Positions 1 to 33,230 of a stretch of 64,000 nt of DNA are shown one piece after another; position 1 is the first letter of the stretch; each line of letters starts with the position of its first letter. The position numbers and the translations under genes are program-made. The stretch covers positions 32,001 to 96,000 of the forward strand of contig CAWIEK010000042.1 in NCBI GenBank assembly GCA_963835065.1, read 5' to 3'. The notes under the pieces were generated by a model, which searched no databases, was not told where the DNA came from, and saw only the letters and a list, made by a program, of their open reading frames with translations. Origin of the DNA: an uncultured Chthonomonadaceae bacterium. Its GTDB lineage: Bacteria > Armatimonadota > Chthonomonadetes > Chthonomonadales > Chthonomonadaceae.

Positions 1-1
1 C

Positions 2-733
2 CTGACGCGAGCGGAAACGGTTGCCCTGCTTGACAGCGAACATTTGATTTTGGACCCGCGCCTGCAAACCCTGCGCTCCCGCGACCTGCCGGTTGCCGAC
101 GCGCTGGTGTTGTCCATCAGCCTGCCCAAAAAGAACGAGCCGCTTGTCGGCTATCAGGCGCGTCGGAACACGCCGCCCATTGACCTGCGGGCGATTGGCG
201 GGGCGCGTATCAGCCACTATTGGGACCGGATACACGGCGGCAGCAAGCCCGTGATTCTGGAACCGGACGAGTTTTACATTTTCGCAAGCCGCGAACTGGT
301 ACGCCTGCCGCCCGAATACTGCGCCGAAATGGTGGCCTTCGATGCCAGCAGCGGGGAAGTCCGCACCCACTACGCGGGCTTTTTCGACAGCGGCTTTGGC
401 TACGGCGCAGAGCATAATGCCGACCAGACCGCCGCCGCCGTTGTCCTGGAAGTGCGCAGCCGGGACGTGCCGTTTTTAATTGAGGACGGGCAGCCCCTGT
501 TCCGGGTTCACGTTCTGCGCAGCGTGGAGCCGCCGGATATTCTGTACGGCAGCCGCCTGGGTTCCAACTATCAGGGGCAGCGCCTGCGCCTGAGCAAGCA
601 GTTCACCGGGACACCCGATGATGCGGAAGCCGACCCCGCGCAGCCCCGTCTTGACTTTTCCACAACGTCAGGAGAGAGGAACCGCGAAACACACGAACCA
701 AACGAAAAGAGGAGGAAAGAGGAAAGGAAATAG
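2..733 (+). CDS. dcd: dCTP deaminase (DCD family), 5'-truncated by the window edge
   Basis: Frame open from base 2; motifs LEPDEFYIFASRE, GEVRTHYAGFFDSGFG, AVVLEVRSRDVPF and GSNYQGQRLRLSKQF match the long DCD-type dCTP deaminases. Confidence 0.8.
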   Translation: MTRAETVALLDSEHLILDPRLQTLRSRDLPVADALVLSISLPKKNEPLVGYQARRNTPPIDLRAIGGARISHYWDRIHGGSKPVILEPDEFYIFASRELVRLPPEYCAEMVAFDASSGEVRTHYAGFFDSGFGYGAEHNADQTAAAVVLEVRSRDVPFLIEDGQPLFRVHVLRSVEPPDILYGSRLGSNYQGQRLRLSKQFTGTPDDAEADPAQPRLDFSTTSGERNRETHEPNEKRRKEERK

Positions 734-1024
734 ACAGGATTAAACAGGATTACGAACTGAGATAACACGTCTGTTTGTTCTGAACTGGATGTTAAAATTA
801 TAGAAAAGGATATGTAGAGGCAGCGTCGAAATCTTGGCAATGCAGCGCTTCCAGCCCGATGTCTCGTTGTGTCAAGTTGTAGAAGAGAGGCGTCGTGACC
901 TCCGCAGCGTCAAGGCGAACGGGAGGGGTGAAACATAGGACTGGCACCTCCCTTCTTAAGTTGATAGTTGATAGGAACTCGGACGTTCAACCTTCCTGTC
1001 TGTACAGTAGACATTTGTACTATA

Positions 1025-1052
1025 TAGACAGGGGGAAGGGGCAAAAGGTTCA
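1025..1052 (-). promoter_or_regulatory. putative ECF-sigma-type promoter (TGAACC-N17-GTCTA)
   Basis: Minus strand reads TGAACCttttgccccttccccctGTCTAtata, resembling the ECF GAAC/TCTA consensus. Confidence 0.35.
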
Positions 1053-1130
1053 CCCTTTTTCGCGTTGTTTGGAGTTTTTCTGGAATTATTTTTTGAGGTG
1101 TGAAGACTGCCGACAAGAAACAGGAAGACG

Positions 1131-1703
1131 CTACTCCTGCCCGCCTGAAATTTGTATAACCTGTTCTGGTGCCTGCGCTTCTGCTGTTGCGACCTGAAAC
1201 AGTACGGGCGGTTGTGTCTGCATGGGGTGCGGGGAAGCGTGTGTCAGGCTGTCGGAAACGGGGGTATCCACAGTGTTTACATTGTCGTCAGTGGAGCGAA
1301 GCAGTTGATCGGCGGGGGTTTGCTGATCGTTTCGCGTGGCACGGAGCAAAATGTTTTGCTGTGCCTGCGCTGATGGGGAAGAAGCGCGTACCAGCGTTTG
1401 GGTGGGCGGCAGTAAGATCGCGTTCGCCTGAGTCAAAGGCAGCACTTCCTCCAGCCGCGCGGCCTGCCGGAGTTTCCCCATGCCGAGGCGACCCAACCGA
1501 AACGCCATGACCGCGAAGAACAGGGCGGCAATCCACCCGAACAGCCCGTAGTTTGCCGATGCCACGCCAACGGCCAGCGCAATGCAAATTAACACTTCCA
1601 CAAGGGAGAAAACGGCAGAGGTTCGCAATAACGCGCGGCTCGTTTGCGTCGCCGCGTATTCGCCCTTGCTGACAATTCGCTTATTGGTGGTTTTCGGCTC
1701 CAT
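1131..1703 (-). CDS. hypothetical membrane protein, KRIVSKGEY paralog family copy A
   Basis: Starts MEPKTTNKRIVSKGEY after GGAGG; two TM segments; C-terminal LVRAS/LLRA/LLRS block shared with 4758..5249. Confidence 0.75.
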   Translation of the reverse strand: MEPKTTNKRIVSKGEYAATQTSRALLRTSAVFSLVEVLICIALAVGVASANYGLFGWIAALFFAVMAFRLGRLGMGKLRQAARLEEVLPLTQANAILLPPTQTLVRASSPSAQAQQNILLRATRNDQQTPADQLLRSTDDNVNTVDTPVSDSLTHASPHPMQTQPPVLFQVATAEAQAPEQVIQISGGQE

Positions 1704-1735
1704 CCCTGCGCCTCCCCTGCCTGAAAACGGAATCC

Positions 1736-1915
1736 TCAAAAGCGGTCGCGGCGATACCAGAACGCGGCCCCGGCAGCCAGCCACACGCCTGCAATCAGGG
1801 CGGCTTTACTGCCGGTCGTCAGTTCCATTCCCATGCGGGGCATGACAAACAAAACGTATAGCGTCAGTAACAATCCGGCTGCCAGCTTTATCTTTTGTCT
1901 GCGGTTGATTCGCAT
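1736..1915 (-). CDS. small two-TM hypothetical protein (59 aa)
   Basis: Strong RBS AGGAGGT before ATG; MRINRRQKIKLAAGLLLTLYVLF...AAFWYRRDRF. Confidence 0.6.
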   Translation of the reverse strand: MRINRRQKIKLAAGLLLTLYVLFVMPRMGMELTTGSKAALIAGVWLAAGAAFWYRRDRF

Positions 1916-2231
1916 TTGTTTACCTCCTGTCTTACTCATCTTCATCTGCCGAGCGCTTCCGGTTCGCCTCCCCTTGTATTTTCTACTTCCAGCTTTGAGT
2001 TTCCTGCTACTCCTGATAAACAGACAGAAGGGAAGAAGAGAAGAAGAGAAGCCGGTAACCTGGTCAATGCCCTGCGCAACCCTGTTTCTTGTGCGCATGT
2101 AGTGAAATTCTTGATAACTTAATCCTTCGGAGGCTTTCTTTTATAGTGTGCCCCGCGACAGGCGCGTTATCTGTAGTTTCTTAATAAATAGCGAGCCAGG
2201 ATAAAGCCTACCACGACGTAAGGATTTCAGA

Positions 2232-3470
2232 ATGTTTTTGCGCAAGATGCCCCCCGCCGGGCCGGTTCTGTTGTTGTTGCTTTTGCTGTCGCTCACGCCG
2301 TTATCATGCCACAGGCAGCCGGTGCTTGTGGCGGAGCCGAGTACAAGCCTCCCGGCGGATCAACCCCATGTTTCTGCGGATAGCGAAGAGAACCTCGTAG
2401 ACCAAATCGCGCCCGACCTCAAAGTAGATTACCTCATGGATGCCCGCGCGCACATGCCGTTTGTCGCTCTGGACGCTCCCCCAATGGTGAAAGCCTCCGA
2501 AACTGACTTCCTCAACGAACAGGAGACTGTGCTGGGCATTACTGAGGGAGGCGAAAGCCGCGCGTATCCTACCCGTTACCTGACGTTCCATCATGTCATC
2601 AATGACACGATTGGAACGCCACCGCGCGCCGCGCGTCCCATCGCCGTTACCTACTGCAACGTGTGCAGCGTCGGCATCTGCTACGATCCTGTAGTTTACG
2701 GCAAGACGCTGCTGTTTGACTTCTTCGGCATCTATAACGGCGTGGTAGCCTTGTGTGAGCGCCAGACGAAGGGCGTGTTCTTGCTGGCGGAGGGGCGCAT
2801 CGTGAGTGGTCCTCTGACGGGAACCCGCCTCAACACGATTGCTGCGCTGGATACTACCTGGGGCGCGTGGAAGCGGCTTCATCCCGATACACTCGTTATG
2901 TCGCCGCAAACGCCTTTCGCAAAGTATTACGGCTCTCCTGCGCAGCCTGTGAAACGGGTTGAAACCGGCTTTCCTGTTCCTTATTTTCAGGCGTCGGTCA
3001 CGCGCGGCGACACGCGCCTGCCTCCCTTCGAAACGGTACTGGCTCTGACCCTGCCCAACGACCCTCTACGCCAGGCGCCCTTACATCGCGCTTATCCTCT
3101 AAAGACGCTGCTGCAAGCGGGGAACGTGGTCAACGAAGTCTTCGGCAACAAACCTATAAGTGTGTTGCTGGACAAGCAAACCCAAACTGCCGTTGCTGTC
3201 TCGCGCCGTGTTGGGACACAAACCTTGACGCTGGAAGCCTCCAGGCAAGCGGGGGATACAAACGCCTTTTATGACCGCGAGACGGGCACGCGCTGGAACG
3301 TGGAAGGCCGAGGAGAAGCAGGGCCGTTGAAAGGCAAAGCGCTTGCGCGGCTGGACAGTCATATAAGCCAGTGGTACGGTTGGGCGGCTTCTTTCCCGGA
3401 TACCACCATCTATGGCCGTAACGATCCACCCCAACCGGGCAATCCTTTCAGGAGAATGGAATCTCCGTAG
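2232..3470 (+). CDS. DUF3179 domain putative lipoprotein
   Basis: Lipobox-like LTPLSC; ESRAYP, HHVIND, VTYCNVCS, TTWGAWKRLHPDT and WYGWAASFPDT motifs; two-repeat architecture. Confidence 0.8.
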   Translation: MFLRKMPPAGPVLLLLLLLSLTPLSCHRQPVLVAEPSTSLPADQPHVSADSEENLVDQIAPDLKVDYLMDARAHMPFVALDAPPMVKASETDFLNEQETVLGITEGGESRAYPTRYLTFHHVINDTIGTPPRAARPIAVTYCNVCSVGICYDPVVYGKTLLFDFFGIYNGVVALCERQTKGVFLLAEGRIVSGPLTGTRLNTIAALDTTWGAWKRLHPDTLVMSPQTPFAKYYGSPAQPVKRVETGFPVPYFQASVTRGDTRLPPFETVLALTLPNDPLRQAPLHRAYPLKTLLQAGNVVNEVFGNKPISVLLDKQTQTAVAVSRRVGTQTLTLEASRQAGDTNAFYDRETGTRWNVEGRGEAGPLKGKALARLDSHISQWYGWAASFPDTTIYGRNDPPQPGNPFRRMESP

Positions 3471-3638
3471 GCGGCACGCGGTAATGGGCAAACGCCGCCT
3501 GATTTACCGGGAACTTCAAGCGAAAGCAGGAACCAGAAAGATTTTTGAGGATAAATCACGGATTGGCAAACGCAGAGGTGAGATGCCGAACGAAGCAGTA
3601 TGTTTGAGATAGAAACCGAACGAAACCTGAATAACCAA

Positions 3639-3711
3639 TGGAGCTGAGGGGATTCGAACCCCTGACCTCTTCGATGCGAACGAAGCGCTCTCCCAACTGA
3701 GCCACAGCCCC
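3639..3711 (-). tRNA. tRNA-Ala(CGC)
   Basis: Reverse complement GGGGCTGTGGCTCAGTTGGGAGAGCGCTTCGTTCGCATCGAAGAGGTCAGGGGTTCGAATCCCCTCAGCTCCA folds as a cloverleaf with anticodon CGC and a G3:U70 pair; CCA not encoded. Confidence 0.97.
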
Positions 3712-3730
3712 GACTTCCAAACACAAGTTT

Positions 3731-3760
3731 AGTATACTCCTGAGACGTGGAAAATGTCAA
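3731..3760 (-). promoter_or_regulatory. sigma70 promoter of tRNA-Ala
   Basis: TTGACA-N18-TATACT about 20 nt upstream of the tRNA 5' end. Confidence 0.75.
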
Positions 3761-3939
3761 GCAGGTTTTTGATTGCGGCGGCAGGAAGGCGGCGCAAAAA
3801 GATTTGCGCGGCTAGAGGAGCATTTCAGGCACTGTTGCCGTTGCGCCTGCTTGCCGCGTTCTTATTTGTTGCCGCCCGTTTGCCGCATTGATTTTATGTC
3901 GTCAGCAGGAGTTTGGTAACGGATAGAGAATGTAGGGGC

Positions 3940-4725
3940 ATGAAACATCGTCGCGTCCTAATTTTATCTTTGCTTGTTGTCGCGCTGGTGGGCGGCTGTG
4001 GCTGGTGGGCGTGGCAGGCGAAACGGCAGTATGCGCTTGATCGGGAGTTGATTGCGGCTCTGGTGAAAAATGACAGCAATCAGGCGGCTGCACTGGTCCA
4101 TGCCGGCGCTGATCCTAATACGCGCTACGCCCCGTCGCTCTCGCCTGCCTTCAAACTGCTAGTCAACCAATTGCTGCGCCGCTCCTTCGTTCCCGCGCAC
4201 CCCACTCCTACTGCCTTTATGATCGTTTGTGGAGTGCCGTTTTATGATCCGGCGGATGCAAGAGTCACCTATACGTACCGGGAAGATTTGCCCTTGGCCC
4301 GCGCCATGCTGGAGCATGGAGCAGATTGCAACGCAGAAGGCGGGTATAATCGGTCTGCGCTTACCTGGGCTGTGATTACTCCCAATCCTAGAACGGCGCA
4401 GTTGCTTTTGGAACACGGCGCGAACGTCAACGCTCAAGATTACGACGGCTACGTACCACTCATGTGGGCTGTGATGAGGAACAATACGAATATGACACGC
4501 CTGCTGCTCACACATAGCGCAAACCTCCATACACAGGACGCACAGGGAGAAACGGCTCTGGAATTGGCTGTTGTATCGCAGGATGCGAAAATCGTCATTC
4601 CCGAACTGCTGGCGCATGGAGCCGACCCGAACCATGCGGACAGGTATGGCACGACCCCGATCATGCTTGCACACCAGCTTCACTATCTCGAAATTGAAGC
4701 GCTGCTGCGCAAAGACGCAAAATAG
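3940..4725 (+). CDS. membrane-anchored ankyrin repeat protein
   Basis: N-terminal TM segment; repeats LLLEHGANVNAQDYDGYVPLMWA, GETALELA and LLAHGADPNHADRYGTTPI. Confidence 0.9.
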   Translation: MKHRRVLILSLLVVALVGGCGWWAWQAKRQYALDRELIAALVKNDSNQAAALVHAGADPNTRYAPSLSPAFKLLVNQLLRRSFVPAHPTPTAFMIVCGVPFYDPADARVTYTYREDLPLARAMLEHGADCNAEGGYNRSALTWAVITPNPRTAQLLLEHGANVNAQDYDGYVPLMWAVMRNNTNMTRLLLTHSANLHTQDAQGETALELAVVSQDAKIVIPELLAHGADPNHADRYGTTPIMLAHQLHYLEIEALLRKDAK

Positions 4726-4757
4726 AACAAAGGGCGCAGAGGCAGGAGGGCGCAGGG

Positions 4758-5249
4758 ATGGAGCCGAAGACGGGCAAGCGGATTGTCAGCAAGGGCGAGT
4801 ATGTCAGGGCAAAGGGAATAGGGTTGAGCCTGCGCGTTTCCAGCAGAGGGTTCATGGCACTGGCAATTTGCTGCGCTTGTTTTGCGGCAGTGATGTTTTC
4901 GTGTTTCGCATGTAGTATTGTTGTATTTTTCATGATGCTATTTAGCGGCAGGAATGCGTGGTCTATGCCTCTCACGGCTCTCTACTTTCTTCTGGCGAGT
5001 GGGCTATCCGGCGCAGTCGGCATAGGTTTCGCGCGTCTGTGCTGGGCCAGTAGAAGCCGCGCAGAACGAATTGAGAATATCGTTCTATTTACCCACGCCA
5101 ACACTGCCGATCTACCCGCGCCTGACAGTTTGGTACGCGCTTCTTCGGAGCCGTTGCAGGCACAGGAGGCCGTGTTACTCCGAGCCGCTACGGAGGGGCA
5201 GGAGAGGCATGAGGATGAGTTGTTAAGGGCGTCTGTGGGAGGCAATTAG
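4758..5249 (+). CDS. hypothetical membrane protein, KRIVSKGEY paralog family copy B
   Basis: MEPKTGKRIVSKGEY start, TM hairpin, C-terminal ANTADLPAPDSLVRASSEPLQAQEAVLLRAA. Confidence 0.75.
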   Translation: MEPKTGKRIVSKGEYVRAKGIGLSLRVSSRGFMALAICCACFAAVMFSCFACSIVVFFMMLFSGRNAWSMPLTALYFLLASGLSGAVGIGFARLCWASRSRAERIENIVLFTHANTADLPAPDSLVRASSEPLQAQEAVLLRAATEGQERHEDELLRASVGGN

Positions 5250-5252
5250 ACT

Positions 5253-5480
5253 ATGGAAACGCTCAATCTCATCAGGATATACATACAGATATTTGTTCTG
5301 ATGACCTTTGTATTCTTCTTGCACCTTTTCGGGTGTGTGGTTGGCTGGCTCTTTCGCCTCCCCGTCATACCCGTAGGCTGCACATATTCGATGGGTGCAG
5401 ACAATCTCTGCTGCCGTTATCCTCGTGCTTTCAACCGAGTTGAACAGTACATCCTGTTCAGAATATTTCCCGGCGACTAA
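5253..5480 (+). CDS. possible small hydrophobic protein
   Basis: ATG 3 nt after the previous stop; hydrophobic N-terminal half; no recognisable motif. Confidence 0.3.
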   Translation: METLNLIRIYIQIFVLMTFVFFLHLFGCVVGWLFRLPVIPVGCTYSMGADNLCCRYPRAFNRVEQYILFRIFPGD

Positions 5481-5540
5481 ACTTTGCTCTCCATCCCTGC
5501 TGTGCGAGACGATGAGGCGGTAAAGAAACGAGGGCAGAAA

Positions 5541-6107
5541 ATGAAAACGGGGCTGTCACGTTTCTGGTACAGGTTTAAGAACTGGTTTCGCACAAAGCCG
5601 GGGTTGGGGGAGCCGTTGACGTTCTTGTGTGGTTCGGAAGAAGAACTGCGGCGGGTGACAACATGGATTTGCCATGCAAATCCACAACTCTTTCAAGAAA
5701 CTCCCAGAGTAGGTGTCGCTTACATAGCGGTGAACGACGAGTGCCATGGCAAGGGAAGAACAGGGCTTCCGACACTATATCCGCCAACATCGTTGTCCAC
5801 CAGGTATTGTGAATTGCTACAAACGTTGTGCAATCTGGCTTGGCGGAACAATCAGTTTACTGGTACGCATTGGAACTTCTTCAATGACGATGAACGGGAG
5901 TACGTGCAATATGCTTGCAACCGTGGAGGCTTCCCTCGTTCTATGGGGATCATCGAGCATAGACATCAGGTAGTGGTTGGCGTAAAACAACCCTCTGCTC
6001 ACGAACGCGCCGAAGCCCTGCTTGCCCTCTCCGAATGGCTGGACGGCAAAGTGAGCGAACAGGAAAAACGCAAACTCCTCCAATTGCCCGATGATTTTGA
6101 GTTTTGA
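5541..6107 (+). CDS. hypothetical protein
   Basis: 188-aa ORF with GAGG RBS, lower GC, ends PSAHERAEALLALSEWLDGKVSEQEKRKLL. Confidence 0.6.
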   Translation: MKTGLSRFWYRFKNWFRTKPGLGEPLTFLCGSEEELRRVTTWICHANPQLFQETPRVGVAYIAVNDECHGKGRTGLPTLYPPTSLSTRYCELLQTLCNLAWRNNQFTGTHWNFFNDDEREYVQYACNRGGFPRSMGIIEHRHQVVVGVKQPSAHERAEALLALSEWLDGKVSEQEKRKLLQLPDDFEF

Positions 6108-6397
6108 CCACCGCCTTCAATCTTGCCCCGGCCCAAAATCCCCGCGCCCGACAGCCCCTAATTCCCTTTCCTGTGTGTCGGCTGCCACCCTAACTCGAAA
6201 AGAAATGGCAGGTGTGGGAAACACGGCGGACAAGCGGCATAAAGGATTGCGCAGGTGGCGAGGGATATTACCATGCCCTGCTTTCACTATGCCCACTTGC
6301 CATGTTTTTGTTTGCATACCGTCCATCCGCTACATTCAATTGTCCATTCCCGCTGTTGTCAGCAGGAGTTTGGTGGACGGCGGCGAATGTAGGGAGT

Positions 6398-7201
6398 ATG
6401 AAGATACGTCGGCCACTAATTCTCTCGTTGCTTATTGTCGCGCTGCTGGTGGGCGGCTGTGGCCTGTGGGTGTGGCAGGCGAAACGGCAGTATGCGCTTG
6501 ATCGGGAGTTGATTGCCGCTCTTAAACAGAACGACACCAAACAAGCGCTGGTTCTTGTCAATGCGGGAGCCGACCCCAACACGCGCTTGATGCCGACGCC
6601 CGCGCCGACGCTTAAACAACTCCTGCAACGATGCCTGCGCCATAGGCCTTGCCTGTCGCTGATAGCCCCACCGCGTTCATGGCCTGTGCGGATGTGGTCT
6701 GGGCGCAAAACGATTCCGTAATGGGCGGTAGAGGTTAAGGAGGATGTGCCATTGATACGGCCATGCTCCTGAACGGGGCGGACGTGAACGCGAGGACGAC
6801 TTACAGAGAGCCTGGCCTGATTTACACGAACTGTTCTGCTAGGCGCTGTTCTCAATCAGCATGCGGCTGCGTGTTCAAGTGTTATTGGAACACGGGGCAA
6901 GGGTCAACGAACCGGCTTTGAATGGAACGACGGCCTTGATGATTGCTGCAAGCGATGGTATGAACAGAAAGGCATATACGCGCATTGTTGGCGCATGGGG
7001 CGAACGTCCGAGCCGCAAATAGCGATGGAGACACGGCCCTGCATTGGGCTGTACGGAGGACAGGGATATTGTAGAGGCAACTATTGGCGCATGGAGCCGA
7101 TCCGTAACCTTCCCAATAAACGTGGCGAGACAGCCATCACGTGGGCACAACGGGAACACCGTCCTGACATCGTAGCCTTGCTCCGAAAAGGCGGGAAGTA
7201 G
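6398..7201 (+). pseudogene. second ankyrin repeat protein with multiple frameshifts (decay or sequencing error)
   Basis: N-terminus nearly identical to the 3940 gene (WQAKRQYALDRELIAAL..ND...GADPNTR); ankyrin fragments across frames; ends PNKRGETAITWA...ALLRKGGK. Confidence 0.8.
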
Positions 7202-7235
7202 CACAAGAAGAAGGGTAGAGGCAGGAGGCGAAGGG

Positions 7236-7532
7236 ATGGAGCCGGCGAAAACGGGCAAGCGGATTGTCAGCAAGAGCGAGTATGTTCAGACACAGGGAAA
7301 GCGAACGGGACTGCGGGTATGGGGTATCTGCTTGTTTGGTTTTACCGTAATTTTTGCTTTGCAAGCCGCATCCTGCATGATGAATCTACTCTATCACCTG
7401 TTTTATGGAGCAAATAGAATTCTCGCCGTATCCGTTTACACCGTCTTTTTTCTCCTGACGGGAGCGGGGAGTTGCTTCTGTCGCAGATGGGGTCAGAACG
7501 CTATGGAGCGGGCGGCAACACTGGATACATGA
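7236..7532 (+). CDS. KRIVSKGEY paralog family copy C, lacking the conserved C-terminal block
   Basis: MEPAKTGKRIVSKSEY and two TM segments; stops where the LVRAS block of copies A and B begins. Confidence 0.7.
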   Translation: MEPAKTGKRIVSKSEYVQTQGKRTGLRVWGICLFGFTVIFALQAASCMMNLLYHLFYGANRILAVSVYTVFFLLTGAGSCFCRRWGQNAMERAATLDT

Positions 7533-7545
7533 TTGGAGCCAAAGA

Positions 7546-8061
7546 ATGCCCGGAGCGCGCGCTCACGATATAATAACTCTGCTGACGGCTGCTGCCGCTG
7601 ACGGCGCGTATTTTGCGTTGGCTCCCCATCCCAACACTAATTACGCCGCGCTGTTTACCATTTCCTACCTGTTTGCCGGGTATGCCTGCGCGGGCGATCT
7701 GGATTTGGACAGCCGGGAATACCGGCGTTGGGGATTGCTGCGTTTTATCTGGAAGCCGTATCAAGCTCTGGTTCCGCACCGCTCGTGGGTGTCGCACGGC
7801 CTGATTTTGGGCGGCGTGATCCGGGCGGCGTATCTGGCGATTGTCACGACGCTGCTCGGCTGTCTCCTCGTCTGGCTGATCAGCCGTTTGGGACCGCATC
7901 TGGACGCGACCCAATTGGCGGAGCAGCAGTGGCAATCCCTGTTCGCGTTGGCGCAGTCGCGTCCGCAGGAAACGCTTGCCCTGTCGAGCGGTTTTGTCCT
8001 TGCCGGAACCACGCACTCGCTTGCCGACATTATCTGGTCGGGCTTGAAACGCCGTTTTTAA
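7546..8061 (+). CDS. DUF2227 putative metal-binding membrane protein
   Basis: MPGARAHD, DLDLDS...RWG.LRFIWKPY...HRS..SHG and HSLAD motifs. Confidence 0.85.
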   Translation: MPGARAHDIITLLTAAAADGAYFALAPHPNTNYAALFTISYLFAGYACAGDLDLDSREYRRWGLLRFIWKPYQALVPHRSWVSHGLILGGVIRAAYLAIVTTLLGCLLVWLISRLGPHLDATQLAEQQWQSLFALAQSRPQETLALSSGFVLAGTTHSLADIIWSGLKRRF

Positions 8062-8210
8062 CGGCGCGTCAGAACGTAAAACTATCAAAAGAAAGGCGCT
8101 CAAGAAACGTTTTCTCGTGAAGAGTAGGTTTGGTTTGGAGCATCATCGGGTATACTGGAAAATGAAGCAAATATCGCTTGTACTCGTTGCCTGACGCAGG
8201 ATGTGAAACA

Positions 8211-8615
8211 ATGCGCCGTTTTGTGGGATGGCTGCTAATTTGTTGTTTTCTGGTTTGGGGGCCGCTGGAAATGCTGCCCCTCGCCCTTGCCCCGCGCCTG
8301 CCCCACACCCCTGTTGCCGTTGCCTCCGCCAAACCCGCCTGCGCCTGCGCGATCTGCGCCGCCCGCCGCGCTGATCCCAAAGCCTGCTGCTGTACTAAAG
8401 CGTACACGCCCGCCGAAACACTGGTCATGCAGGCGCAATGCGACGACCAACACGCCACCGCCCTTGTCGTCAAAGCCAAACTGCCCCTGATACTGCCGAC
8501 GTTATTTGCATCCCCTGTCAGCCCTGTCTACGCCTTCAATCACGTCTTCTATTACGCGCCCCTCCTGCGCGTCCTGACTTCCGAACCTTCCGAACCGCCT
8601 CCCTGTCACGCTTAA
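8211..8615 (+). CDS. Cys-rich exported small protein with C-terminal PPP (DUF2946/CutF-like architecture)
   Basis: Hydrophobic N-terminus, CACAIC...CCC cluster, ends EPSEPPPCHA. Confidence 0.6.
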   Translation: MRRFVGWLLICCFLVWGPLEMLPLALAPRLPHTPVAVASAKPACACAICAARRADPKACCCTKAYTPAETLVMQAQCDDQHATALVVKAKLPLILPTLFASPVSPVYAFNHVFYYAPLLRVLTSEPSEPPPCHA

Positions 8616-8657
8616 ACCTTGCCGTTTGTTCAAAACTCTTTTTTGATCGCCTGCTCA

Positions 8658-8688
8658 CGGGGCGCAGCGTGTCGTTACACGCGCCCCG
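8658..8688 (+). promoter_or_regulatory. stem-loop between the Cys-rich ORF and the DUF1559 gene
   Basis: CGGGGCGC...GCGCCCCG perfect 8-bp stem plus inner GTGT/ACAC stem. Confidence 0.45.
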
Positions 8689-8781
8689 ATTTGCCGCTAT
8701 GCCTGCCTTTACATTCTACAAAGGGAAACAAGGACAGCCTGAGCGCGGCGATACAACCCTTTTCCGCGTGACCGAGAGGCA

Positions 8782-9633
8782 ATGATGAAAACCCGAACAC
8801 CCAACACCCAACACCGAACACTCAACATAGGAAACAGGAAACAGGGAACAGGGAACAGAAGAAACTCAATCGAAAATCCCTCAACCCTCAACCGGGCGTT
8901 TACTCTGATCGAACTGCTCGTGGTCATAGCCATAATCGCGATTCTCGCCGCGATTCTGTTTCCCGTTTTTGCGCAGGCGCGGGAGAAAGCGCGTTCCATC
9001 GCCTGCCTGTCCAATGGTAAACAGATCGGCACGGCCCTGTATATGTACGTTCAGGATTACGACGAGACATACCCGCAGGAACATCCCGCCACCGCCAACC
9101 CGGTTCAGGATGACAACGCCGGGCAGTTGGAAGCCGAGGACTATGGCTCACCCTTTGACAAAATCCTGCCGTATGTGGCGAGCAAGGACAGCAGCAAGAC
9201 CCAACTTTATATCTGCCCGTCTGACCCCGACCCACACGGCAAGGCCATTACGGATGCAGGCGGCAACTGTATTTCCAACAGCGCGCCGCCGCCCGGTCCC
9301 CTGAGCAGTTACATCATCAATGCCTATTACCTGTTCGGCGCGACCCTGGCGCAAATCAATGCCCCGTCACAGTCCATTTATGTCGTAGAACGCCGCAGCG
9401 AAGGCAACAAAAACACGGACTTTTGCGACGTGCATTACCACCCCTGGCTTGCGGAAGTGGAACTGCCAACAACGCCCAATGATACGGTCAATCCCGTCGC
9501 CCTTGCCGCCAAACGGCACACGGGCGGCAGCAACTACGTTTATGCGGACGGCCACGCCAAGTGGCAGCGCTTTGAAAACACGCGCAAGCCATTTGAGGGC
9601 CATACCCTTTATGGCGAACATCAGGCATTCTAA
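8782..9633 (+). CDS. prepilin-type N-terminal cleavage/methylation protein, DUF1559 with H-X9-DG motif
   Basis: [33 protein letters not shown]...CLSN.KQIG...[23 protein letters not shown]. Confidence 0.92.
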
Positions 9634-9717
9634 AAGGAGTTCCGCCTGCTCCTGCCGAAACTAATTACGTCTTTAAGACAGTCTCTACACCCTTTGTTGT
9701 GTTGAAGGTCCGTGATT

Positions 9718-10532
9718 ATGGCGTTAATGGTTCGGCAGTTGACCGGCGCGGATGCGCCCCTTTTGGAAGACTTGTACCGCAAAAACCCGCTGCGGTTTCT
9801 GACGCCGCGCATGAATCTGGAAGTGTACGGCTTTGACGGGCCAACGATCTGTTCGTGGGGAGCCTTCACGCCGGACGGCAGCGCGCTGCAAGGCATCTTA
9901 CTGCGTTTCAACAACACGGCGATCATTGCCGATCTGGATGGGAGCGCGGCGTCCGCGTTTGCGCCCACAGTGGATGAGGAAAGAGGGCTGTTCGGGGTGC
10001 GCGGCACGATGGAAACCGTCCGGCGGCTGCGCGCCAATTTGCGCCGCTATACGACTAATGGCCTGGAACAAAGCACATACATGCAGCTTGTGGTTCCGCC
10101 CTTATGCCCGCCCGAAATCCTGCGCTGGCCCGTCCGGCCCGCCCGGACGATCTGGACATGCTGGCCGCTCTATATGCCGGAGCGTATACGATGTTTCGGA
10201 CGCGCGACAACGTGCAGGCGAAACTGGCGGAAACGCGCGTCTTTGTGGTGGAGGAAAAGGCGACGGGACGGAGTCCCGCGCGTATTTCGGCCTGCGCCCT
10301 GCTCAACATGGAGGGCAGGGATGCCGGCCTGATCGGAGGCGTGTTCACCGCGCCTCTTGCGCGGGGCAAAGGCTACGCCGGAGCCTGCACCGCCGCGTTA
10401 TGCCTCGACTTGCAGCGCGACGGCAAGCTGCCCTGCCTGTTCTATGAAAATCCGATTGCGGGGCGCGTGTATCGCAGATTAGGCTTTGAAGAAATCGGAC
10501 AATGGGGAGTGCTATATCTGAACAAAGGCTGA
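9718..10532 (+). CDS. GNAT family acetyltransferase with one frameshift near 10122
   Basis: ORFs 9712..10332 and 10104..10532 join at PPEI/LARPARPDDL; acetyl-CoA motif IGGVFTAPLARGKGYA; NPIAGRVYRRLGF. Confidence 0.8.
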
Positions 10533-10735
10533 TATAGAATAGCCCCTGTCAAGAAATCGGTGTTCACTTCAAAAAACGTGTTATTTCTGCTTTCGGTTAT
10601 AGGGGCTAAAGGCACATACTCCAATCCTATAACGGCAAACCCCGCCTAATGCTTCACATTCAGATAACCAGCTACCGCGTATACTGAAGGGGGTCGCAAC
10701 CAGTGTGCTTCCTTTTTGCATTATGGAGGAACAAC

Positions 10736-11017
10736 ATGATGACAGTACAGCCGCCGCGCTACCCGAAAGAAGAGGTTGCCCAACGCGGCGACGAAATCTA
10801 TAACCGCGACATTCGCCCGCAGGTAGACACCGAGCAAAACAAAGGCAAGTTTGTTCTCATTGACATTGAAACCGGCGCGTGGGAAATGGATGCCGACGAA
10901 ATGACCGCGTTTAAGCGCATGGATACGCGCCTGCCGCACGCGCAGGTGTGGATGGTACGGGTCGGTTATCCTTACGTGTACCGTTTTGGCGCAGGACGCA
11001 CTCGGAGGAGCGCGTGA
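10736..11017 (+). CDS. small hypothetical protein of the type found upstream of clan AA aspartic proteases
   Basis: GGAGG RBS; RGDEIY...GKFVLIDIETG.WE.D...RVG; stop overlaps the next start (GTGA). Confidence 0.75.
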   Translation: MMTVQPPRYPKEEVAQRGDEIYNRDIRPQVDTEQNKGKFVLIDIETGAWEMDADEMTAFKRMDTRLPHAQVWMVRVGYPYVYRFGAGRTRRSA

Positions 11018-11391
11018 TTACCGGTGTTGTTACGGCTGCCCGAGAAGCCGTTCTCAGCATGACAGTGTACGATAGGAACGGGCAGCCACAAAAAGTCAAT
11101 TCTATTGTGGATACCGGCTTTACTGGGTGGTTTACCCTGCCGCCTGACGTTATTGCCGCACTCGGCTTGACATGGAAACGTTCGGCAAACGCCATTTTAG
11201 CCGATGGCAGCACGATCCTTACCAATGTTTATGAAGCCGTCGTGGAATGGGATGGGCAAACACTTACTATTCCGGTGACAGAAGCGGACGCTGATCCGCT
11301 CATTGGCATGTCGCTGATGTACGGCTACGACATTTTCATTCAAAATGTGGCTGGGGGCATTGTGACATTGAGACACCCTCTGCGGCCCTGA
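11014..11391 (+). CDS. clan AA (retropepsin-like) aspartic protease
   Basis: GTG start with GGAGG; catalytic IVDTGF, LADGS flap, PLIGMSL. Confidence 0.85.
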   Translation: MITGVVTAAREAVLSMTVYDRNGQPQKVNSIVDTGFTGWFTLPPDVIAALGLTWKRSANAILADGSTILTNVYEAVVEWDGQTLTIPVTEADADPLIGMSLMYGYDIFIQNVAGGIVTLRHPLRP

Positions 11392-11425
11392 CAAAAAGCA
11401 AATAGAGAGCATCGGCATCATCAGA

Positions 11426-11917
11426 TTACTCCAGCGCGATTTCTTCCGGGGTGAAGGCGGTGCGGTCATCGTTTAGCTGCCAGGCAGTCAGCGCGTCGGG
11501 TGTGCCGTCCAGAATGGACACAATGATATACGTGTACCAGGGTGAGGCCCACTCCCGATCATACACGCTCGGATGCGCGGGATGGTTGGGGTGCGAATGG
11601 TAGAAACCCAGCACTTTGCGCTTCGTGCGCCGCTCCTCCTGCATCAGCGCGAACATCGTATCCGGGGAGACGAGGTAGCGCCGCTCCTGCCCTACGGCTT
11701 CCACAGTCGGCGGCGCGGCCTGCAATTCTTCCTGCGCCAACACGCTGCGCTCAAAATCCTCGCTCGGCGCAAACGTGTTGTCCAGGCCCCGTACTTCCCG
11801 GACGATTTTCACATTATCGCTCACATCGCCAAGCAGCACACCCACGCACTCGCGCGGAAACGCTTCCACGCCATGTCGCCGTATCGCTTCCAAATCGGTT
11901 TCGGACATTCGTATCAC
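11426..11917 (-). CDS. M67/JAB-MPN metallopeptidase (Mec-like CysO-cysteine peptidase family)
   Basis: PRECVGVLLG and GFYHSHPNHPAHPSVYD JAMM motif; adjacent to cysteine synthase; start uncertain (GTG 11917 or ATG 11908). Confidence 0.85.
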   Translation of the reverse strand: MIRMSETDLEAIRRHGVEAFPRECVGVLLGDVSDNVKIVREVRGLDNTFAPSEDFERSVLAQEELQAAPPTVEAVGQERRYLVSPDTMFALMQEERRTKRKVLGFYHSHPNHPAHPSVYDREWASPWYTYIIVSILDGTPDALTAWQLNDDRTAFTPEEIALE

Positions 11918-11929
11918 GAGTTTCTCCGT

Positions 11930-12056
<127 letters not shown>

Positions 12057-31603: not shown

Positions 31604-33230
31604 ATGTGCCGTCGCAAGCTGTGTTCGAGACTGGCGTTGACTGCGATGTTTGGAGCGTTCCTGGCAGTCGGGGGCGCGCGGGCGAGGCAGGGCGCAGACG
31701 CCGGATAAAGCCAATACCCCCCTGCTCCATACCTGGCTTACGCGCTATTCGGGGCAGTACGCCCGCGTGGTGGAAACAAAGGGCGGCAAGCCTGTCGCAA
31801 CATGGCCGTCCGCCGGCCTGCGCAGGATGGGCGGCGGACAGGCATTGCCCGCGTATTCCGACATACAGCAAATCGGCATATCCGGCGAGTACGTTTATAT
31901 CAACGGCAGCGGCCTTGCCAGTCACCAAATGGGACCCTGGTACGACGAGTTGGGCAACATCTTCGGCAACTGGCCCACGAATTTGAACTACATCCGCCGC
32001 TTTCCCCTGCATCCGAAAGTGGAAGCCGTCAAGGTGACGAATGGATTGGGGCCGTTGGGGCTGTGGGTGAACGGCGTGGCGCTGTTCAATCAACTGGATG
32101 GTTTTGCCTACAACCCGCTCACTCATTCCGAACCGCAGGGTCCGCCACAGCAGGGCCAGCAGAACACGGGCAACGCGCTTTGGGTGCGCAACGCGGTTTT
32201 GGTGGAGCAGCCGACGTTCGACAAGTCCAACGCGCATCAGCCGCCCAATGGCGAATACCACTACCATGCCAACCCGGTCGGATTGCGTTACCAACTCGGC
32301 GACAACGTTGCTTTGGATGCCGCGACAGGCAATTACCGGGAAAACACTTCCAAATTGCATCATTCGCCGATTCTGGGATGGTCGAATGATGGTTTTCCGA
32401 TTTATGGGCCGTATGCTTATGCCGAGCCGAAAAATCCTGCGAGTAGCGTTCGGCGCATGGTGTCCGGGTTTGTGTTGCGAGATGGCGGACACCATACCGA
32501 CGACCTGCGCAAAACAGGCCGTCGCGCGCTGGCAAAGTGGGCGGCAGACCTGCATAAAACCCCTGTGACGCTGGCGGAAAACCAGTACGGCCCGGATGTG
32601 TCCGCGCGCTACCAATTAGGCCGCTATTGCGAGGATTTCGACTTTTTGGGAGACCGGGGTGAAACGCAGGGCAAAGACTTCGATCTGGACATTTACAACG
32701 GGCGCTTTTGCGTGACGCCGGAGTTTCCGGGCGGCACGTATGCCTACTTCGTGACCATTGACGCGAAAGGAGCGCCGGCCTACCCCTATGTCATTGGGCG
32801 GCAATGGTACGGCGTACCGAGCGGCGGCGACGTTCGGCGCTTGACGGAAACCGTGACGATGCTCACGGACGCGGGGCCGGGAGCCGCCACGCAATGCAAA
32901 GCGGAAGCCTCAGCGGGCGGCAAACAGCTCACATGGAACTCCGTCGAAGGCGGGCATTACCGCGTGGAAGGTTCGCAGGACGGAACGCAGTGGAAAATTC
33001 TGCGCCCGGATGTGCCGAGCGCGGGGCTGTCCACGCGCTGCGCTTTGACGGCAGGCGCGGACGCAAACTATGCAAAGTACCGCGTAGTTCTCGTCACGCT
33101 GGAACCCTACGATGCCATCGGCAGCCGCAACGGCCCGAACGGCGGGCAGGGCGGGCCTCCCGGCAGGAATGGCGGACAAGGCGGCCCACCTCCTGTGAGA
33201 AACGGCGGCCCAGGACAACCGAATCTATAG
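31604..33230 (+). CDS. YHYH domain secreted protein (frameshift near 31685 separates the signal peptide)
   Basis: AGGAGG RBS and MCRRKL...LTAMFGAFLAVG signal; NGVALFN, GEYHYH, HSPILGW..DGFPIYGPY, LD.YNGRFCVTPEFP.GTYAYF. Confidence 0.85.

Follow-up and report, generated by a model that had tools for sequence, protein, structure and literature searches.

Immunity genes are the closest described counterparts of the genes analysed here. In the available part of PMC9484751, tipC and esaG, immunity genes of type VII secretion systems (T7SS), form sets of many non-identical paralogues, tipC recombines via similar 5' and 3' blocks, and tsaI, a membrane immunity family, has one homology block and shows little recombination. 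The available part of PMC3482391 gives ankyrin, HEAT, SUKH and two-helix classes as known types of immunity protein and lists extended polyimmunity loci only for four other phyla. Here we analysed a 64,000-nucleotide stretch of DNA (the window; positions 32,001 to 96,000 of contig CAWIEK010000042.1, assembly GCA_963835065.1) from an uncultured Chthonomonadaceae bacterium. It carries three members (copies A, B and C) of a family of predicted membrane hairpin proteins with conserved ends and a hypervariable middle, and we conclude that the middles are very probably shuffled between copies, strains and species by recombination at the conserved ends. The likeness to tipC and esaG lies in paralogues with terminal blocks at which recombination takes place, and in tipC and esaG the variable middle is thought to meet the toxin. 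However, according to the same source, the tipC and esaG genes lie behind a known toxin and a T7SS, whereas no cognate toxin or T7SS marker was found here in the searches described below; the family of the window also consists of predicted membrane hairpins, occurs as dispersed and tandem copies, is exchanged across species and shares its tail with unrelated proteins.

The preliminary description of this DNA had noted three open reading frames (ORFs) with a common leader and start block, a C-terminal block with three L(V/L)R(A/S) motifs in A and B, and a copy C that stops where the tail should begin, and all of these were located (Table 1). The ORF of copy C (7236-7532, plus strand) encodes 98 amino acids, and no tail was found downstream in any of the three frames. 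In contigs from two independent public runs C is likewise tail-less and is connected to the following gene by a different 37-base junction, so the missing tail is not an assembly error. Between A and B, the nine-residue N block is identical, the tail is 48% identical and the middle is 21% identical (Z 0.9 against shuffles). The earlier statement that the middles lack similarity thus stands for this pair but not in general, since 31 of 428 summarised pairs had Z > 3 and the middle of A is 41% identical to that of a copy in a related genome, which makes A a comparatively stable lineage. Below, G000 is the genome under study, G001 and G002 are two further genomes of the same genus with the loci L007 (G001) and L008 (G002), and X1 and X2 are public sequencing runs; the relative of A is in G002, an X2 contig spans the region of A (1039-1929) with 56 differences, and the middle of A has a host-like guanine-cytosine content at third codon positions (GC3) of 0.74. 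Pairwise comparison of 97 homologues gave column identities of 49-59% for residues 1-20, 5-19% for residues 21-100 and 58-78% for the tail, which means that the middles are far more diverged than the ends.

The family itself is real but far larger than the three paralogs first noted. Its profile matched 20 places in G000 and 24 and 26 in the two same-genus genomes, so there are about 20 copies per genome rather than one to three. Matches were found in 18 of 41 other Chthonomonadaceae genomes, in 0 of 26 genomes from other families of Chthonomonadales and in none outside Chthonomonadaceae, and database relatives are assigned to Chthonomonadaceae or Chthonomonadales. Counted in G000 were 14 intact copies (two of them on near-duplicate contigs), three with frameshifts, the tail-less C and three family leaders that run into unrelated sequence.

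Four tests agree that the middles have been recombined between the constant ends, as had been proposed. In the cross-species pair C68:107814 of G000 and L008:4665 of G002, the proportion of synonymous differences (pS) was 8/55 in the middle and 23/37 in the tail (Fisher p=3.6e-6). The core genes dcd and DUF2227 of the same two genomes have pS values of 0.38 and 0.52; the shared middle is less diverged than these genes, so it crossed species recently. The two tails are each nearest to a local array neighbour that has an unrelated middle (92% and 83% amino acid identity). The last spacer of the tail occurs as two multi-residue types, and when members were grouped into lineages by middles of at least 55% identity (142 members, 20 of them without a tail type; types were assigned by pattern, and kin are not independent), 7 of 16 lineages held both types, compared with 6.6 expected at random and about one under clonal descent. 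A larger set of 184 members contained 162 middle types, and 7 of its 19 lineages were mixed. Linkage also decayed along the tail, with r2 falling from 0.062 to 0.048 (permutation p=0.009; 28 gap-free sequences).

Contigs from other sequencing runs are in keeping with recombination at the blocks. An X2 contig tracks the ankyrin gene and the leader of B from 3938 to 4803 (866 bases, 41 differences) and departs from B where the N block ends (4803), 224 letters before it stops. Two X2 contigs join 4803 to 5096 across different letters. An X1 contig has both ends of gene Z with 295 other letters between, and an X1 contig carries 5091-5603 with 25 differences. The absence of contig cover over the B and Z middles was taken as evidence only where contigs join across. 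Within G000, a stretch of 14.1 kb is 98.6% identical between contigs C27 and C29, which probably represent two strains binned together, but the middle differs at 22 of 267 bases compared with 176 of 14,106 overall (p=7e-13), and 10 of the 17 changed codons in the middle are non-synonymous compared with 37 of 113 in the flanking genes. A 4.7-kb tandem duplication (98.9% identity) that includes a family gene was also seen at C12:67-78 kb.

The preliminary description had further read the conserved DNA ends as fitting a recombination-shuffled cassette system, and a dedicated system of this kind, with conserved recombination sites in the DNA, was not supported. In 55 pairs within G000, the tail had a median pS of 0.68 and a median proportion of non-synonymous differences (pN) of 0.20; the synonymous sites are near saturation while pN is low, so it is mainly protein-level selection that maintains the ends. 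The exception at the DNA level is the 20 bases before the ATG, which are 77% alike among 14 copies compared with 53% for random pairs of genes bearing a Shine-Dalgarno sequence, yet this stretch includes the ribosome-binding site. Homogenisation of tails within a genome is weak (median 67% in G000 compared with 62-65% between genomes). A "foreign" composition specific to the middles was considered and rejected: in 9 of 12 middles GC3 did not exceed the 5th percentile of the membrane segments used as controls, but the tails are equally low, as the GC content at four-fold sites is 0.59 in the middle, 0.61 in the tail and 0.79 in the genome. No integron integrase exceeded the cut-off in four genomes (best TIGR02249 score 124 bits against 265), none of the G002 tyrosine-recombinase matches is closer than 60 kb to the L008 array, and no XerC/D recombinase adjoins it, as judged by an integrase/recombinase search and the ORFs flanking L008. 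No common motif was seen by eye at 24 gene junctions of L008. As to attC sites between genes, these L008 junctions were judged by eye only and most are too short, and Rfam gave no match besides a tRNA in window positions 1-12000. Because no integron integrase was found and the ends are held by protein selection, ordinary homologous recombination, of the kind seen in streptococcal tipC, would account for the pattern without a dedicated cassette machine.

We therefore regard two-arm homologous replacement with occasional one-arm capture as the simplest mechanism. Incoming DNA, likely taken up via natural transformation, would recombine through the two conserved arms and replace the resident middle, and one-arm events would give leaders fused to foreign genes. 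ComEC is present in all four genomes, which points to the transformation route. The one-arm events resemble homology-facilitated illegitimate recombination, in which one homologous arm and one illegitimate joint are combined (available part of PMC3240628), and would yield leader-foreign fusions such as those at C46, C67 and C68:106388; that process, however, is a general one and not a gene system, and it is invoked for this lineage by analogy. ComM is intact in two relatives and split in one. In G001, duplicated fragments, with family genes in between, come after comM (C2:2662275-2675007), in G002 it is split by about 100 kb (C2:156404 and 258320), and islands are probably inserted in comM in both genomes.

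Several points weigh against this explanation. Among 1,596 pairs, the four cross-genome ones with middles at least 59% identical comprise one clear split, one with p=0.02 and two without any. ComM was not found in G000, which is 92% complete. The regional comparison of substitution rates that had been suggested gave purifying selection in the tail, but the excess of amino acid changes in the C27/C29 middle is borderline (p=0.056).

Prediction indicated that the family members are inner-membrane helical hairpins with both ends cytoplasmic, a short variable loop facing outward and a tail without a stable fold of its own. The structure model of B, a check that had been suggested, is a long helical hairpin with a predicted local distance difference test score (pLDDT) of about 90 and a low-confidence tail. 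Both helices are hydrophobic in the 98 members analysed (above 1.6 for both in 77), and the density of lysine plus arginine is 0.21 before the helices, 0.075 between them and 0.15 after them, so by the positive-inside rule both ends are predicted to be inside and the loop outside. The predicted loop is variable, with a median of 15 residues and a range of 2-42.

No library names the family, which agrees with the first reading that it belongs to no recognised one. A, B, C and Z gave nothing above cut-off in the family libraries, they and eight neighbouring proteins had no PHROG match, and at most 2 of 97 members matched any Pfam, NCBIfam or PADLOC model. With copy B, the ESM Atlas returned unnamed clusters only, below 0.9, and Foldseek returned no match to the B model at E<=0.001. 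Holin superfamily III (holin-X, PF07332) was considered and rejected, because C scored 15.8 bits against a gathering threshold of 28.4, only 2 of 97 members had weak matches below the cut-off and PHROG gave no match. Two membrane helices also occur in Imm-CdiI and Imm17, and Imm-HEAT has HEAT repeats like the sister family described below, but no Pfam match was obtained here and the available part of PMC3482391 describes no triple-LLR tail for them. No description of the family or of the tail motif was found in the literature, in which subscription papers were sparsely covered, and the available part of PMC4959169 does not mention HEAT, ankyrin or paralog families. The family and its tail motif are new, and the principle of shuffling is already known.

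The tail extends far beyond this family. The triple L(L/V)R(A/P) pattern was found in 61 of 7,671 called genes of G000, which mostly encode HEAT-repeat proteins, 60 of them within 60 residues of the C-terminus, and 20 shuffles gave 0-3; the count is approximate, because the home-made gene caller missed B and C. About 40 other G000 proteins share the motif. A single cluster holds 36 of the tail-bearing genes, and HEAT matches were obtained for 6 of 10 tail-bearing proteins scanned, many of them following a two-helix hairpin of their own. The tail profile matched 14 of 14 sampled Chthonomonadaceae genomes, 8 of 10 of a sister family and 0 of 1 of a third (22 of 25 of the order), with no match in 225 other Armatimonadota genomes (at most 29 candidates were scored per genome), and it matched 2,612 cluster representatives; none of the libraries searched has a model for it. 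The 20 tail carriers examined in five low-copy genomes were all long, mostly of the hairpin-HEAT type, and lay among housekeeping genes. Database protein P0149 fuses the hairpin family and the HEAT-hairpin type. Judged by distribution rather than by a rooted tree, the window family looks like a HEAT-less offshoot that kept the tail. A tail-bearing HEAT-type gene lies on the same contig about 19 kb before the start of the window (G000 C42:11855-13222, minus strand). At the end of single-helix mini-proteins, of hairpins that carry another small domain and of one pilin-like protein the same tail is present as well (L084:2671-3027; L079; L081:3510-4265), which indicates that it moves between unrelated bodies.

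A docking role of the tail seems somewhat more likely than not. A protease, a scaffold or another cytoplasmic partner common to the tail carriers may be docked by the three LLR(A/P) motifs, which would derive from an older family of HEAT-repeat hairpins. In the HEAT-hairpin model the tail is a coil with a pLDDT of 53-62, as expected of a linear motif array, and on the same grounds folding of the tail back on its own HEAT domain found no support. Foldseek gave no match to this model at E<=0.001, the best being designed armadillo repeats (E 0.003). The closest described motif is the XB tail of SspB (RGGRPALRVVK), which tethers the protein to the N-domain of ClpX and is likewise a short C-terminal Leu-Arg motif that ends a flexible linker (available part of PMC3983244). 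The tail described here, however, has three TLLR(A/P)S copies, and the zinc-binding domain of ClpX (PF06689) was not found in the tail-positive genomes G028, G029, G032 and G035 (96-100% complete), so ClpX is unlikely to be the universal partner. Near-copies of the ClpC N-domain without the ATPase were seen at G000 C65:86487-88148 and C19:30310 and at L007:12245-12709. Two genes beyond the L007 array there is a stand-alone Clp-N gene, which no other family locus examined has.

In the window, B and C belong to a cluster with two other gene types (Table 1). Each lies directly 3' of an anchored ankyrin gene, and the same junction occurs at C45, C46 and C67. The ankyrin gene before B belongs to a paralog family with a conserved start and a variable body, and the fixed-variable-fixed build occurs in three unrelated families of the same arrays: the hairpins, Z and, less sharply, the ankyrin proteins. 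These modules recur in other arrangements at C45, C46 and C68. L007 has five family copies in tandem, and the same-strand array L008 (about 17 kb) holds nine tail-bearing genes or remnants, six ankyrin-type genes, one Z and many orphans. The window cluster, L007, L008, C45 and C68 share the same orientation of genes, short spacers and the lack of an intervening toxin gene. Cluster content differs between close relatives, and in G001 and G002 the core genes found on either side of the window cluster lack family genes as neighbours. Foreign sequence is joined to the family ends at several places: at C46 a family leader runs into a SUKH-4 gene (E 1e-14), at C67 a leader and a tail remnant enclose an unrelated gene of 230 amino acids, at C68:106388 and L008:10451 the sequence enclosed by leader and tail is of a non-membrane kind, and at G000 C53:334301 leader DNA and start precede an unrelated membrane protein of 145 amino acids without a tail. 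The junctions with foreign DNA are at differing offsets.

Table 1 Coordinates of the family copies, their parts and the neighbouring features in the window
Feature	Position	Strand	Description
Copy A	1131..1703	-	190 amino acids; predicted two-helix membrane hairpin, triple-LLR tail and 50-residue extension
Copy A tail	1293..1394	-	Three L(V/L)R(A/S) motifs, at 1394, 1349 and 1304
Copy A leader, start and KRIVSKGEY block	1656..1722	-	Conserved leader DNA
tRNA-Ala(CGC)	3639..3711	-	Left edge of the ankyrin-B-Z-ankyrin-C cluster
First promoter-like motif	3905..3931	+	GCAGGA, 15-17 bases, GAA-containing box; precedes first ankyrin gene; putative promoter
First ankyrin-repeat gene	3940..4725	+	Pfam Ank_2, E 1e-27; N-terminal membrane anchor; directly upstream of B
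Copy B leader, start codon and KRIVSKGEY block	4736..4803	+	Left homology arm; related contigs diverge at 4803/4804
Copy B	4758..5249	+	163 amino acids; predicted two-helix membrane hairpin (model helices 12-63 and 70-106), triple-LLR tail
Copy B variable middle	4804..5090	+	Two hydrophobic helices and loop; column identity 5-19%; X2 contig joins
Copy B constant tail	5091..5240	+	Right homology arm, putative docking motif; PLTRAN-type block; LLR motifs at 5130, 5175 and 5220
Small hydrophobic ORF between B and Z	5253..5480	+	75 amino acids; single copy in genome
Gene Z	5541..6107	+	Third family; fixed ends 85-92% alike, variable middle 16-37%
Second promoter-like motif copy	6362..6388	+	Precedes second ankyrin gene
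Second ankyrin gene	6398..7201	+	Several frameshifts (decay or assembly indels)
Copy C with leader	7215..7532	+	N block and two hydrophobic helices, no tail

Frameshifts need caution in this assembly, since clpX is frameshifted twice in G000 (L150, C34:13500-16000), which suggests assembly indel errors. The promoter-like motif is also present at G000 C53:114002 and C5:30465. Its strict pattern had 55 matches genome-wide at a spacer of 16 compared with 2-24 at other spacers from 8 to 21. We take the motif to resemble the sigma-H consensus; a loosely defined sigma-H pattern showed no excess over its spacer controls (96 compared with 45-118), and G000 has two sigma-H-like genes of 239 and 222 bits, under the cut-off of 295. 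Matches to Z were confined to this genus (3 of 41 genomes), and its domain also forms the C-terminal half of proteins of 350-400 amino acids (G000 C44:482493-483602 and C50:233042-234151; five in tandem at G002 C4:435-440 kb). Three repeats were also noted in the window. A non-coding repeat of about 280 bases at 804-1080, also present in G002, has 169 genome matches (60 near full length), no Rfam match, and ends that resemble short terminal inverted repeats, A-rich on the left and T-rich on the right; a copy occurs within 3 kb of 6 of 16 family loci, compared with 12% of random places, and the loci are not independent. The second repeat (663-790; about 127 matches, often in inverted pairs about 200 bases apart) overlaps the 3' end of the dCTP deaminase gene, and the third (8826-8895; about 150 matches) lies just 5' of a prepilin-type gene, whose N-terminal family itself has more than 60 paralogs.

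What the hairpins do is best approached from these arrays. Our tentative preference, which we would put at somewhat less than an even chance, is that they may be orphan immunity proteins against membrane-acting toxins of neighbouring microbes, by analogy with the systems named at the outset. The variable hairpin would recognise an intruding membrane protein, and this is the weakest step. Orphan immunity fits best because the arrays share three structural features of polyimmunity loci, because immunity-type classes are present and because tipC evolves by the same two-block recombination. The polyimmunity features are close-packed small genes on the same strand, ankyrin and SUKH members, no toxin gene inside and content that differs between close relatives (available part of PMC3482391). 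By the same source the arrays differ in that most of their genes belong to no described immunity family, no XerC/D adjoins them, and each genome has many loci instead of one. Other observations count against orphan immunity. The hairpins match no immunity family (97 members scanned), only 1 of 20 array-neighbour proteins scanned is a named immunity protein (SUKH-4) with 12 lacking any Pfam family, and the scan of array neighbours gave no toxin family. Many copies are solitary and surrounded by housekeeping genes, and several have cross-species counterparts. Rhs proteins are abundant, with 21 cores in G000 and cores in 38 of 41 genomes of the order, but family-bearing relatives have few cores (1-9) and several family-free ones have 20-47, so Rhs abundance does not track the family and nothing ties the two together. 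Two long Rhs arrays (C53:449-470 kb and C49:354-366 kb) had no leader or strong tail match, unlike what would be expected of cognate Rhs immunity genes, which sit directly downstream of an Rhs C-terminal toxin; orphan Rhs cores, 7 and 5, lie there at C53:449000-470000 and C49:354000-366000. TssC of type VI secretion systems (T6SS) and WXG100 had no match in five genomes.

The hairpins could also form a lineage-specific birth-and-death family with no role in conflict, in which the tail is a selected docking signal, any hydrophobic hairpin serves as an anchor and recombination is a by-product of many similar ends. We consider this unlikely, though with an appreciable chance: it would suit the low pN of the tail at near-saturated pS, the relaxed codon use over whole genes, tails included, the many broken and truncated copies, and the HEAT-hairpin tail carriers among housekeeping genes across the order, but it sits poorly with a middle that moved between species later than core-gene divergence, with the middle as the local divergence peak between near-identical contigs, with 162 middle types among 184 members and with three unrelated families of the same build in the same arrays. 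More improbable are anti-phage or recognition modules, that is, superinfection exclusion proteins, receptor decoys or proteins that sense phage membrane proteins, with signalling via the common tail. The variable outward loop and rapid turnover of alleles would agree with them, and a constant cytoplasmic tail would suit a shared downstream partner; against this, the PHROG searches gave nothing for A, B, C, Z or the eight neighbouring proteins, PADLOC gave a marginal match in 1 of 97 members, and no defence gene was found among the array neighbours scanned with Pfam.

That the hairpins are toxic themselves (pore- or holin-like), with the upstream ankyrin proteins as antitoxins, is very unlikely. 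Most copies have no adjoining ankyrin gene, including the five tandem copies of L007, and the missing TssC and WXG100 matches also speak against it, even though an ankyrin gene lies directly before B, C and the copies at C45, C46 and C67, database protein P0217 is an ankyrin-hairpin-tail fusion, and 2 of 97 members have the weak holin-X matches. Least credible is a dedicated site-specific cassette system, integron- or shufflon-like, that uses leader and tail as recombination sites. It would explain a non-coding leader conserved beyond the ribosome-binding site, same-strand arrays of small unrelated genes and the complete foreign gene that leader and tail remnant enclose at C67, but the integrase and recombinase searches were negative, the synonymous sites of the tail vary freely, and the foreign-DNA junctions lie at different offsets, with no common motif seen at the 24 L008 junctions. 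A speculative and quite unlikely extension would be an undescribed plug-in membrane surveillance of Chthonomonadales, in which dozens of hairpin and HEAT-hairpin proteins, each with a swappable segment that recognises an intruder, would serve one cytoplasmic machine via the triple-LLR tail, and the gene ends would also serve, with no integrase, as landing sites for the exchange of alleles across species and the capture of foreign defence genes.

Shuffling of this kind is known from firmicute immunity genes; here it concerns an unnamed membrane family, crosses species, has no visible toxin and involves three families of one array that are unrelated to each other. More is to be gained from the tail: this short motif closes about 60 proteins of the genome and was found in one bacterial order only. 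P0121, a relative of the HEAT-hairpin carriers, is assigned by its source to Chthonomonas calidirosea, so the question can move to a cultured species. The tail partner, if found, would define a new targeting or docking signal and would give a first function to many hypothetical proteins of a poorly studied phylum.

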